A stretch of 60,403 nucleotides of DNA, the filler included, from Circinaria calcarea (taxonomy: Eukaryota): the NCBI GenBank assembly GCA_051942165.1. It is 5 parts of 5 records of this genome, joined end to end, with 100 filler letters (N's around TTAATTAATTAA, not from the genome) between each part and the next. Parts side by side here need not be neighbours in the genome. Positions count along the whole stretch, not along the records: positions 1 to 12,013 come from JAVECS010000617.1; 4 more parts are not named here. One strand, written 5' to 3'. This document shows, one piece after another, positions 2,092 through 4,605 of this stretch. Positions within the stretch are counted from its first letter, which is position 1, and the number at the start of each line of letters is the position of its first letter. The translations under genes were made by a program, and so were the position numbers. The notes below the pieces were generated by a model that worked only from the letters and a program-made list of their open reading frames with translations, searched no databases and was not told where the DNA came from.

Positions 2092-3300
2092 GGAGGGCAA
2101 TGTACAATGTATCGACCGAAGAAAAGTTCTCCGGTGATGGGAAAGAACTCAGCGCACGAGATGAGGATTTTCTGGTCACGGGCGGGCAATCGGTGTCACT
2201 TCAGTGTACTTCGGGCGATTGATCCATGAGGGGCGCCTGCAGGAGCGAAACTGTTCTGGAGCTTGATGCGGGGATGAACTCTATGCGCCTGCCTGGGACT
2301 GTGATTATCTAGGTCCTCTAAGAATATATGCTCGTCGATCGAGGTCAGGTAAGCAGAGAGAGAGACACACACATGACAGTTCTACCATCCAGATACTCCA
2401 CTCGCTTTCGCCGCCGGCGTCAAGGCGTTCAAACCTTCAATGAATTGGCTAGAACATCAAAGTAACCACTCAATTAATCCTTACCGCTTAGTAGACCCAG
2501 ATCACTTTTCGCTCTATAATCTACCTACCCTTTCAATTATTCCACATGTCCATTTAGGCTTAGGATGCTCTGCCGACCTTCAGTCAATATATTTCCTCGA
2601 GAGCTCTGTGATGAAATGCGCTTCCTGCCAGCGTACAATCTCTACACCTCAAGGTACCGACGTATCGTGGGGAAATGACAGCATGATGGTAGCACGACAG
2701 GTTTGGATAGCCTGCTAGGCAGTTCGCTAACCACCAAGTATGCGTTCAGCCACAACGCCCGGCTACTTCGACTTGAGGTGTAGGTCGCTGGCTTGCTGTG
2801 AATTGGAATCTCTGAAATGGAATGAAACTGAGCGCCGGGAAAAGAATCCAAGTCCCTTAATTCGACTGCAGCAGATCCAAATGTCGATCCAGCCATGTCA
2901 CGGGACTTCGAGACTGCCTGGATTGATGCAAAAGTAGATAAACGCGGTAAGGCCGTTGGATAACAGCCGCCGTTTACCAGTAATAGGGGCGCATGGATTT
3001 GCCTCAACGGGGATCCCCGGGCAGTGATGGTGGGGTTTGCACCATACCCCGCTTCTCATGAAGATATATGAATAGAGAGGACCACTTCTGCCATCCCTTT
3101 CCTCTCCATCACTTGTTCGTTCCATACATTGCCCTTGATACTGTAACAGTCCATCCCACCCTGTATTGGTTTCCTTACTGACAACTCATAGAAACCGACA
3201 GCGTCCTAGCCGATAAGTACGGTGCTCCTCCAAGATGGAAACCATGACCTTCCGTCACCGGGGCATTGTCCACAACGATCAAGGTAAAGCAGGTAAAATA

Positions 3301-3450
3301 GCATGAACCGGTGTTCGTTCACCATCTTCCAGTGCCGGCATCCAACCTCTTTCTAGTAAAGAGGAGATGCAAGGCCGGAAGCCCTGGGTTCGTTCTGAGA
3401 TTATACGGTCACAACTTGATCAGGATAATACCTGCGAAACGGAATCATGC
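3301..3450 (+). promoter_or_regulatory. TPP (thiamine pyrophosphate) riboswitch aptamer in the THI4 5'-UTR intron
   Basis: P1 GCATGA(3301-3306)/TCATGC(3445-3450); conserved CTGAGA...ATACGG; P4/P5 AACTTGATCAGGATAATACCTGCGAA; long P3 hairpin; followed by branch CTAAC and acceptor CCAG(3498) 13 nt before the THI4 ATG. Confidence 0.96.
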
Positions 3451-3511
3451 TTACCTTCTTCCTTTCATCCCATGATCTCCATCTAACCATGCTTCCAGGA
3501 AATCAAGCAAG

Positions 3512-4605
3512 ATGTCGCCGCCCTCAGCCATCTACGCCGAAAGCTCCCCTGTGAGGACCACTCTTTCGAGCAAGAAGAACTTGGACGATGTCGTTCTCAA
3601 TGGCAAGAACAAAGTCCTCGAAGACTTTGCCAACAACTGGGATTCCTTCACCTTCGACCCCATCCGCGAGAGTCAGGTCTCGCGTGCTATGACAAGACGC
3701 TACTTCAATGACCTCGACACCTATGCCGAAAGTGACATTGTCATCGTCGGTGCCGGTAGTTGCGGTCTCAGTACCGCGTACATGCTCGGCAAAGCTCGAC
3801 CAGACCTTAAGATTGCCATCATCGAGGCTTCCGTCTCTCCTGGTAAGGCAAATCTTTCTTTCATAGAAGGATTTCCTCCAGTGGCTAATACAACCTTCTA
3901 GGTGGTGGTGCCTGGCTCGGTGGCCAACTCTTCTCGGCAATGATCATGCGTAAACCCGCTGACAAGTTTCTCACCGACCTTGGCGTCCCCTTCGAGGACG
4001 AGGGTCACTATGTCGTTGTGAAACACGCAGCTCTCTTCACCTCCACCCTTCTCTCCAAAGTTCTCTCTTTTCCCAACATCAAGCTTTTCAACGCTACCGC
4101 CGTCGAAGATCTCATCACTCGTCCCGCTGGCCCCAACGGGGAAGTCCGCATTGCTGGTGTGGTGACCAACTGGACTCTTGTGACCATGCACCACGATGAC
4201 CAAAGCTGCATGGACCCTAACACTATCAATGCGCCGTTGGTCATCTCCACAACGGGACACGATGGGCCATTTGGTGCATTCAGCGTTAAACGGTTGGTCA
4301 GTATGCAACAGCTTGAGAAGATCGGAGGTATGAGGGGGTTGGACATGAATACTGCCGAGGACGCAATCGTCAAACGGACCAGGGAAATTGTGCCAGGTCT
4401 CATCGTTGGTGGAATGGAGCTGAGTGAGGTTGACGGTGCAAACCGCATGGGACCCACCTTCGGAGCAATGGTAGGCTTATCATCCTGTTCCATTTTTGGA
4501 TCCACGTCACTAACCACCTCCTTTATCTAGGCTCTTTCCGGCGTCAAAGCTGCCGAAGAGGCATTGAAGGTCTTCGACGAGAGGAAGAAGCAGAATGATG
4601 AATAA
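3512..4605 (+). CDS. THI4: Thiamine thiazole synthase (3 coding exons; introns 3843-3901, 4471-4530)
   Basis: [34 protein letters not shown], sulfur-donor Cys in [25 protein letters not shown]. Confidence 0.97.

Follow-up and report, generated by a model that had tools for sequence, protein, structure and literature searches.

The leader of the THI4 gene of Circinaria calcarea very probably carries a TPP riboswitch splicing switch of the standard fungal type I, in which one strand of the P4/P5 arm of the aptamer would mask a weak proximal donor, and a second exact complement between the donor region and the aptamer is probably not a second lock. The locus lies within a stretch of 60,403 nucleotides, filler included, to which we refer as the window. 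A first-pass annotation of this DNA had placed donors at 3217, 3284 and 3293, upstream ATGs at 3235 and 3244, an acceptor at 3498 and two exact seven-letter complements, and each was found where it had been placed (Table 1); the Neurospora NMT1/THI4-type layout that it had recognised, with a distal donor, upstream ATGs, a proximal donor beside a complement of P4/P5 and a single acceptor, likewise holds. The gene is THI4, encoding thiamine thiazole synthase: its spliced coding sequence yields a 324-amino-acid protein identical to the NCBI protein P0001, named for Circinaria calcarea, and the Pfam Thi4 profile (PF01946) matches exon 1 at 7e-21 and exon 2 at 1.4e-85, with profile positions 1-235 covered jointly. 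Judged by the THI4 protein match, the host is a lichen-forming Lecanoromycete; proteins of the Lecanoromycete genera Xylographa, Lasallia, Hypocenomyce, Lignoscripta and Icmadophila were matched as well.

Table 1. Features of the THI4 locus, in positions of the window
Feature	Position	Strand	Basis or remark
Distal 5′ splice site GTACGG	3217..3222	+	sequence; exon end 3216
Two upstream ATGs, same frame	3235-37, 3244-46	+	sequence
Anti-aptamer element X, ATTGTCC	3265..3271	+	pairs with GGATAAT 3423-3429 (P5 5′ strand and L5), one G-U
Anti-aptamer element A, GATCAAG	3277..3283	+	pairs with CTTGATC 3415-3421 (P4 5′ strand to first base of P5)
Proximal 5′ splice site 1, GTAAAG	3284..3289	+	sequence and RNA of relatives
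Second-donor zone	3289..3298	+	GCAGGT, possible GC donor (exon end 3288), and GTAAAA 3293
Pairing B, GCAGGTA with TACCTGC	3289-95/3429-35	+	exact reverse complement
TPP aptamer	3300..3451	+	RF00059 match and conserved helices
Aptamer P1	3300-05/3446-51	+	conserved helix
Aptamer P2	3307-10/3406-09	+	conserved helix
Aptamer P3, long insert	about 3326-3383	+	P3 hairpin in fold
CUGAGA (CTGAGA in DNA)	3395-3400	+	sequence
Aptamer P4	3415-17/3438-41	+	conserved helix
Aptamer P5	3421-24/3431-34	+	conserved helix
Likely branch-point motif CTAAC	3483..3487	+	10 nt before acceptor AG; putative role
Leader-intron 3′ splice site AG	3497..3498	+	exon 2 starts at 3499, 13 nt 5′ of ATG 3512
THI4 main ATG	3512	+	sequence
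uORF stop TGA	3552-54	+	sequence
THI4 coding region	3512..4605	+	exons 3512-3842, 3902-4470, 4531-4605; stop TAA 4603-05
THI4 coding introns	3843-3901, 4471-4530	+	both absent from RNA contigs

When the 701 bases from 3000 to 3700 were searched, the Rfam TPP family (RF00059) was the top match, at 32.4 bits and an E-value of 1.9e-4. The covariance-model check named in the first-pass annotation returned a match, but one under the gathering cut-off of 54.3 bits, which is a curation line and not a biological feature; the whole window searched at the gathering score gave no RF00059 match. None of 20 orthologous loci reaches this score, and in 13 of the 20 RF00059 is the sole family at E<=0.01 (34.6-46.1 bits), so that the model under-scores the long-P3 class of THI4 aptamers. 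Because of the long P3 insert, cmscan also misplaces P1 and P2. The P1, P2, P4 and P5 helices are nevertheless present in canonical order and with covariation: across 34 orthologous sequences their 17 pairs are formed in 94.3% of 545 cells, as against 26-42% when the partners are slid, and 28 cells are changed on both sides, with P2 positions reading GC:17/AU:16 and CG:32/GC:2 and a P5 position reading UA:28/AU:6, a covariation score that 0 of 500 shuffles reached. The CUGAGA junction and the P4/P5 pyrophosphate arm at 3413-3436 (..CUUGAUC.GGAUAAUACC.GCG..) are invariant or nearly so in the 34 sequences; a CUGAGA pyrimidine-sensor junction and a pyrophosphate-sensor arm are the parts that contact TPP (PMC5882874). 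To judge from this conservation, 3300-3451 is a real TPP aptamer, though below the Rfam cut-off, and by analogy it would bind TPP in Circinaria calcarea.

The first-pass annotation had taken GATCAAG at 3277-83, the reverse complement of CTTGATC at 3415-21, as one of two anti-aptamer sequences. This pairing is real and conserved in relatives, but it is only half of a bipartite helix, of which the other block, ATTGTCC at 3265-71, had been missed. Together the elements X and A form a nested helix against aptamer positions 3415-3429, in two blocks with a 5-nt bulge between them, and element A ends at the base just before the GT at 3284, so that it is X and A that supply the complementarity of P4/P5 to the proximal-donor sequence. 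The 14 pairs of this helix are formed in 88.3% of 463 cells, compared with 22-44% when the partners are slid, and its covariation score was reached by 0 of 500 shuffles; it is mostly conserved rather than covarying, with only 3 cells altered on both sides. Helix X alone (7 pairs) is 90% paired and is conserved as NTTRTCC in the alignments. By a count made by eye, X+A is the RNAduplex optimum ending in CAAG/G (here and below, a slash within a donor motif marks the splice site) in 22 of the 34 rows. Forcing A alone in a fold of the window sequence brought about X as well, at -59.8 kcal/mol versus -53.5 kcal/mol for the ligand-free aptamer fold.

The aptamer sits inside a 5′ UTR intron with a single acceptor 13 nt before the main ATG. 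That acceptor is aligned across relatives, which use the same position, and CTAA or CTGA is conserved in their alignment at the place of the likely branch-point motif. Of the donors, the proximal site GTAAAG at 3284 is weak because it lacks a G at +5. Splicing from 3216 leaves no upstream ATG in the mRNA, and those at 3235 and 3244 are retained only in proximal-spliced or unspliced mRNAs, where they open uORFs of 34, 88 or 37 amino acids after junction 3283, 3288 or 3292, respectively, each of which runs across the main ATG in another frame; the first-pass annotation had correctly described the removal of both ATGs by the 3216 junction and the overlapping uORF, ending at TGA 3552-54, for junctions 3283 and 3292. 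This arrangement is widespread among relatives: of the 26 distinct loci that extend 140 nt or more upstream, 20 have GTA[CT][GA] and then one or more ATGs ahead of the anti-aptamer element, and 32 of 33 rows (relatives and window) have an ATG in the equivalent leader segment. In other lineages the proximal donor lies at GATCAAG/GT or is displaced downstream by 8-20 nt; three lineages have donors at both places. A second GT close after GATCAAG/GT is also present in loci L073 and L070, which the THI4 tree does not place as sisters of the window; this does not support the first-pass view of the duplicated donor as a local elaboration. The deep nodes of this tree are weak (23 of 47 inner branches have support under 80), and it does not force the three rows with both donors together. 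A second GT[AG] between GATCAAG/GT and P1 is common among relatives, but since GTR is expected by chance within about 20 nt around half the time, its presence alone is no evidence.

RNA evidence for these junctions came from metatranscriptome contigs of near relatives, matched to the window at 90% likeness, from runs that covered small shares of the stretch (0.06-0.15) and are not taken to indicate a habitat or strain. One such run, X1, of a near relative, contains a contig joining 3283 to 3500 with C replacing 3499 (depth 6.9, 26 letters on the shorter side) and a second contig joining 3288 to 3500, again with C at 3499 (depth 4.87, shorter side 29), each joint being a single contig with fewer than 30 letters on its shorter side and weak by the method's own flag. 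Of the junctions to 3499 foretold in the first-pass annotation, that from 3283 was thus seen, but the second junction lies at 3288 and not at 3292. The 3288 junction is not foreseen by a simple masking model; depending on whether the near relative has C or T at 3290, its donor would be of the GC or the GT kind. Neither 3216 to 3499 nor 3292 to 3499 was found among the contigs of near relatives, which show presence and not absence and are only about 91% alike in the upstream exon; contigs of three relatives begin at 3499/3500. In relatives, the homologous donor ATCAAG/GTA is used in RNA contigs L016, L028, L024, L064 and L065. L016, a proximal-donor contig, is 100% identical to the genomic locus L034 across the 5′ exon, and L018, matched to the same genomic locus, uses the distal donor (ACCAA/GTATGG) with the same acceptor, so that both distal-donor and proximal-donor mRNAs are present as RNA in the L034 lineage. 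Proximal-spliced contigs of relatives contain 3-5 upstream ATGs and productive ones 0. The near relative thus shows the proximal junctions and other relatives show both isoforms; the elements, their conservation and the structure of the aptamer are likewise observed, and from the sequence we infer that the distal donor at 3217 is used in the window's own lineage.

The mechanism that we propose is modelled on Neurospora NMT1/THI4, and the thiamine dependence of splice choice in Circinaria calcarea is predicted by this analogy. At low TPP, the 5′ half of P4/P5 (3415-3429) would pair with ATTGTCC (3265-71) and GATCAAG (3277-83), forming a nested, bulged helix flush against the weak donor at 3284 and hiding it. 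The spliceosome would then splice the distal donor at 3217, the stronger one, to the acceptor at 3498, removing the upstream ATGs and the aptamer to give a translatable THI4 mRNA. At high TPP, the aptamer (3300-3451) would close on its ligand and reclaim P4/P5, freeing the proximal donor zone; splicing from 3283, less often from 3288, or a failure to splice would keep the ATGs at 3235 and 3244, whose uORFs cross the THI4 ATG out of frame and would cut translation.

The first-pass annotation went further, in that the tandem donors at 3284 and 3293 would each be masked at low TPP by an aptamer strand of its own, GATCAAG by 3415-21 and GCAGGTA by 3429-35, as a lineage-specific device. We consider such a double lock distinctly unlikely, despite several observations in its favour. 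Both seven-letter complements are exact, and among 5000 dinucleotide shuffles two non-overlapping perfect complements of this length between 3223-3299 and 3395-3451 arose in 0.46%, and one or more in 11.9%. The state in which pairing B is forced reaches -58.3 kcal/mol, well under the free aptamer fold and competitive with the A+X state, and together with the rarity of two such complements this means that B may have a lineage-specific role. The site of pairing B also aligns with CAG/GTAA donors truly used in other lineages (L005; L030 and L043 versus L050). However, pairing B shows no conservation or covariation across the 34 sequences, being 51.2% paired where shuffles average 52.1% (460 of 500 shuffles as high), with its G-C pair 3289/3435 confined to the window (1 of 30) and its A-U pair 3291/3433 present in 3 of 30. 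Moreover, it crosses the conserved X+A helix: X and B both call on T3429, and the link between A and B is only 5 nt long, so that by sequence geometry the two helices could form at the same time only through an unlikely pseudoknot. In the unconstrained minimum free energy fold, AGGUA at 3291-95 is taken up by another UACCU, at 3452-56, in an extension of P1, and the donor GTAAAA lacks a G at +5. Six of the seven letters of B are those of the splice consensus CAG/GTA, and the match is largely forced because this consensus meets the UACC of the aptamer; L073 retains CAG/GTAAAG despite a P5 reading CCAG. On these sequence comparisons, GCAGGTA with TACCTGC is most likely a by-product of a P5 that happens to read CAGG/CCUG in the window lineage, and is probably not a second lock. 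Masking of the second donor by the P4 5′ strand (CAGGU with ACUUG) was considered separately and rejected for the THI4 locus of the window, since it has only 5 pairs there and its state combined with X (X+C) reaches -52.1 kcal/mol, which brings no gain over the free aptamer fold; in L012, L021, L040, L044, L051, L058, L061 and L073 the same strand can mask UCAG/GU donors with 6-7 pairs. GCAGGUA is exactly +1 to +7 of the possible GC donor behind the 3288 junction in the near relative's RNA, and in a more elaborate scheme, which we regard as very unlikely, three overlapping weak donors (GU 3284, GC 3289 and GU 3293) would be served by two mutually exclusive TPP-free folds, each silencing another proximal donor, with UACCUGC of the P5 3′ strand shielding GCAGGUA in the second fold as an internal decoy. 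In its letters this UACCUGC presumably matches the end of U1 snRNA that binds splice sites.

A reading that dispenses with precise masking holds that the same three sites are redundant weak proximal donors, as in Neurospora NCU01977, and that the main effect of the switch is to promote or hold back use of the distal donor. NCU01977 has several alternative proximal sites, none of them critical (PMC3597705), junctions 3283 and 3288 occur together in one run, and the place of the proximal donor varies between lineages as described above. Yet in most lineages the conserved helix stops right at the first proximal donor, which fits the site masking known from NMT1/THI4 (PMC3597705), the THI4 leader has no need of the alpha/alpha′ pairing to P1′ by which the NCU01977 type is defined, and the 3288 junction is one short contig; we therefore judge this reading unlikely. 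That the aptamer is a decayed relic, in a leader intron spliced constitutively or otherwise regulated, is exceedingly improbable: the want of an RF00059 match at the gathering score speaks for it, but the orthologues fall short of that score too while most of them match RF00059 alone, and a relic would hardly keep covarying helices with CUGAGA and the whole P4/P5 arm invariant or nearly so in 34 sequences. The type I switch with a single bipartite mask is thus the reading that we retain.

TPP aptamers in 5′ UTR introns that switch THI4 expression are known across Ascomycota as type I (PMC5882874); the THI4 switch of Neurospora crassa has been described, with an intron that is 'slightly more complex' (PMC5997356), and the TPP riboswitch of Neurospora crassa NMT1 (THI5, NCU09345; Cheah et al. 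2007, Nature 447:497) is described in PMC3597705 and PMC5997356. As in NMT1, the aptamer studied here lies in a 5′ UTR intron, distal and proximal 5′ splice sites flank the uORF starts, P4/P5 is complementary to the proximal-donor region, a pairing that NMT1 forms without TPP, and the proximal isoform carries uORFs over the main ORF like the TPP-favoured isoform of NMT1. In contrast to NMT1, the gene is THI4 and the host belongs to another fungal class (Lecanoromycete); the anti-aptamer consists here of two blocks with a 5-nt bulge, and NMT1 may be drawn likewise. The closest counterparts are Neurospora crassa THI4 (NCU06110) and the type I class of Mukherjee et al. 2018 (PMC5882874), with the same gene, leader-intron place and predicted logic, and likewise with P4/P5 as the best-conserved aptamer segment and a P3 of variable length. 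The type II switch of NCU01977 (Li and Breaker 2013, PMC3597705) shares a TPP aptamer, several 5′ splice sites and several alternative proximal donors, but there the 3′ strand of P1 pairs at long range near the first donor of a long internal intron, whereas the THI4 intron is short, in the leader, and has P4/P5 as the pairing partner. With RF00059 (THI element) the aptamer shares the CUGAGA junction, the P4/P5 pyrophosphate arm and the P1-P5 order, and it differs in a P3 insert of about 58 nt and a score of 32.4 bits, under 54.3. Cladonia, Xanthoria, Umbilicaria, Lasallia and 'Lecanoromycetes' are absent from the searched part of the supplementary table of PMC5882874, where the Circinaria lineage seems not to be catalogued, and our literature search found no riboswitch paper for Lecanoromycetes. 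The bipartite helix and the donor variants may already be in figures of Cheah et al. 2007 or Moldovan et al. 2018.

The known type I mechanism is unchanged by these findings. They add a well-supported thiamine-control annotation for the THI4 gene of a lichen-forming fungus. The comparison of 34 leaders also refines the view of the expression platform, in that the mask is a nested two-block element, NTTRTCC...GATCAAG, set against the 5′ half of P4/P5. That the Rfam TPP model at its gathering score misses the long-P3 THI4 class, with 0 of 20 orthologues recovered, matters for the automatic annotation of fungal genomes.

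The gene downstream of the leader is THI4. The Pfam Thi4 domain matches exon 1 at 7e-21 and exon 2 at 1.4e-85, and the NCBI entry 'MAG: hypothetical protein Q9187_003597 [Circinaria calcarea]' is identical to the spliced product. After it, the best matches among named proteins, at 92-93% identity, are from Lecanoromycetes. Both coding introns (3843-3901 and 4471-4530) are absent from RNA contigs of near relatives. A possible THI4 TATA box is the ATATAT run at 3064-3069 in the window, ~150 nt ahead of the distal donor; if so, the adjacent ATGs at 3058 and 3068 would both precede the start of the transcript. 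The furthest-upstream RNA contig of a relative begins at 3192.

Features of the THI4 leader and gene (positions along the window)
Feature	Position	Detail
Distal donor	3217	GTACGG
Upstream ATGs	3235 and 3244	same frame
Proximal donors	3284; 3293	GTAAAG; GTAAAA
P1	3300-3305 with 3446-3451	AGCAUG with CAUGCU
P2	3307-3310 with 3406-3409	
P3	between P2 and CUGAGA	hairpin, ~58 nt (fold)
CUGAGA	3395-3400	
P4	3415-3417 with 3438-3441	
P5	3421-3424 with 3431-3434	
Acceptor	3497-3498	AG; downstream exon from 3499
Main THI4 ATG	3512	
THI4 CDS exons	3512-3842, 3902-4470, 4531-4605	spliced translation 324 aa

Every motif listed in the first-pass annotation is present where it had been placed, and its reading of an NMT1/THI4-type switch agrees with a leader layout that fits the established type I, from which we infer TPP binding and thiamine dependence. 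PMC5882874 lists type I for THI4 in many fungi and, like PMC5997356, agrees with the type I pairing of P4/P5 to the proximal donor. As annotated, the TGA at 3552-3554 closes the upstream ORF after a junction at 3283 (34 aa) or 3292 (37 aa); from a junction at 3288 the ORF would be 88 aa, likewise overlapping the main ATG out of frame. Position +5 is G in most distal donors (GTACGG, GTATGG and GTACGA, in the window at 3217 and in relatives) and almost never in proximal ones (GTATTT, GTATAT, GTAACT, GTAAAG and GTAAAA, in the window at 3284 and 3293 and in relatives), as would suit a default site that is strong and a regulated site that is weak.

A protein-guided scan of metagenome contigs identified 80 THI4 loci of relatives (handles beginning with L) at 72-92% amino-acid identity. 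The strict aptamer core is present in 42 of the 80, and variant cores were recognised by eye in five more (L001, L031, L049, L071 and L079); the remainder lack the upstream part or are spliced mRNA. At the Rfam gathering score the whole window gave no match. A permissive search of 3000-3700 placed RF00059 (TPP) at 3364-3462 with 32.4 bits (E 1.9e-4), so that the covariance-model check returned the expected family below its 54.3-bit cut-off. P1 and P2 align poorly because the model is unable to bridge the long P3 insert, and the helices in the table were therefore taken from comparison with relatives. In an alignment of the window with 33 distinct orthologous leaders, 94.3% of the 545 cells for the 17 aptamer pairs are paired, and sliding the partners lowers this to 26-42%; double changes occur in P2 (GC:17/AU:16 and CG:32/GC:2) and P5 (UA:28/AU:6), and none of 500 shuffles reached the covariation score. 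None of 20 relatives' loci reached the Rfam cut-off and 13 had RF00059 as their sole family at E<=0.01 (34.6-46.1 bits), which argues that the low score is a trait of the long-P3 THI4 class and not decay. The hexamer TTCGTT stands on both sides of the P3 insert (3313-3318 and 3389-3394), and many relatives share these flanks (GGTGTTCGTT...GGNTTCGTTCTGAGA). Since the hexamer copies do not complement each other, they may make up a conserved internal loop where P3 has its base.

Upstream of the aptamer, the alignments retain a distal donor consensus A/GTAYGR (the slash marking the exon boundary); of the 26 distinct loci that extend 140 nt or more upstream, 20 have GTA[CT][GA] with one or more ATGs after it, and an ATG lies behind the distal donor in 32 of 33 rows. 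Two further blocks are conserved: NTTRTCC (ATTGTCC, 3265-3271), complementary to GGATAAT (3423-3429), and GATCAAG (3277-3283), the exact reverse complement of CTTGATC (3415-3421). The blocks and their partners run in inverse order and so nest into a single helix, interrupted by a 5-nt bulge. This helix occupies all of P4/P5's 5' half and stops at the base preceding the GT at 3284. The first-pass annotation had thus seen the GATCAAG half of this anti-aptamer helix and missed the ATTGTCC half. Its 14 pairs are formed in 88.3% of 463 cells (22-44% when slid), with both-side changes in 3 cells and a covariation score matched by 0 of 500 shuffles, and on manual reading the RNAduplex optimum is this bipartite helix in 22 of 34 rows. 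In window folds, forcing the GATCAAG pairing alone brings the ATTGTCC pairing with it. The ligand-free aptamer fold has -53.5 kcal/mol, this forced state -59.8 and the unconstrained optimum -60.1. The aptamer of locus L012 (1856-2074), the sole one to carry GGGTAAT for GGATAAT, has ATTACAC for ATTATCC upstream of it, that is, one compensatory U-A to C-G change next to one mismatch.

A second anti-aptamer pairing had been proposed between GCAGGTA (3289-3295) and its exact reverse complement TACCTGC (3429-3435); the comparison does not support it. Two perfect 7-mers arise in 0.46% of 5000 plain shuffles (at least one in 11.9%), and the window forced into this pairing has -58.3 kcal/mol, so that a lineage-specific role is conceivable. 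Across the 34-sequence alignment, however, the pairing stays at shuffle level (51.2% of 217 cells, shuffle mean 52.1%, 460 of 500 shuffles as high). Its G-C 3289/3435 is found in the window alone (1 of 30 rows with letters) and its A-U 3291/3433 in 3 of 30. The core common to relatives is GGUA with UACC, of which the splice consensus fixes one side and the aptamer the other; P5 covaries between CAGG/CCUG and CUGG/CCAG while the donor context does not track it, L073 retaining CAG/GTAAAG despite a CCAG P5. The pairing also crosses the conserved helix (3289-3295 inside it, 3429-3435 outside), both require T3429 and the linker from GATCAAG is 5 nt, so that, from the coordinates, the two could coexist only through an improbable pseudoknot. 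How easily short matches arise here is shown by the unconstrained optimum, in which AGGUA (3291-3295) pairs with a second UACCU (3452-3456) directly after the P1 3' strand, extending P1. A comparable P1 extension (GATGAT with ATCATC) was seen by eye in L070 and in none of the other relatives looked at.

The tandem donors, taken earlier for a local elaboration, are not local. The proximal donor is flush at GATCAAG/GTA in some loci (e.g. L006, L009, L015, L023, L045) and 8-20 nt further on, at CAG/GTAA, in others (e.g. L003, L012, L044, L050, L051, L058, L061); donors at both places occur in the window, L070 and L073, and in three loci sharing L073's upstream segment. On the THI4 tree, whose deep nodes are weak, the flush and further-on types cluster, and the three rows with both need three changes, at least two forced by well-supported branches. 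In several loci of the further-on type, UCAG/GU itself pairs with P4 ACUUGA (6-7 pairs in L012, L021, L040, L044, L051, L058, L061 and L073); in the window this register was rejected, giving just 5 pairs and, at -52.1 kcal/mol, no gain in stability over the free aptamer fold. In one clade (L017, L019, L023, L025, L026, L034, L038, L045, L068), the 6-12 nt adjoining P1 on its 5' side hold a conserved GCTAAGTATAC(T), duplicated in L026; the element holds a GT, and that clade's spliced contigs L016 and L028 use an ..AG/GTA donor further up.

Public RNA runs cover small shares of the window (0.06-0.15), and the contigs of the four runs aligned at 90% likeness are from near relatives. Two joints come from run X1: a contig linking 3283 to 3500, C replacing 3499 (depth 6.9, shorter side 26 letters), and a second linking 3288 to 3500 with the same replacement (depth 4.87, shorter side 29 letters). 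In the second, all 30 upstream letters are identical to the window. Both are modest evidence, since the alignment tool warns that joints with sides <30 at <95% likeness can be spurious. The first supports donor 3284 and the acceptor; the other junction, at 3288, implies a donor at 3289 (GCAGGT in the window), a GC donor with good +3, +5 and +6 unless the relative carries T at 3290. Unspliced contigs span 3259-3436, 3293-3450, 3295-3841 and 3261-3464. Contig L016, whose 5' exon is 100% identical to genomic L034, is spliced at the proximal donor (GTACTTTT next in the genome), and L018 uses the distal donor ACCAA/GTATGG with the same acceptor; both isoforms thus exist as RNA in the L034 lineage. 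L030 and L043 use CAG/GTAATG, the L050 type. Proximal-spliced contigs examined (L016, L028, L005, L030, L043, L064, L065) retain 3-5 upstream ATGs, productive-looking ones none.

Our literature search found no paper combining riboswitches with Lecanoromycetes, and the part covered of the supplementary tables of the 2018 fungal survey (PMC5882874) gave no match for four Lecanoromycete genera or the class name. The two-block helix and donor variants may already be on record, and we claim no novelty for them. The THI4 leader element adds to a known type of switch and is not a new mechanism.
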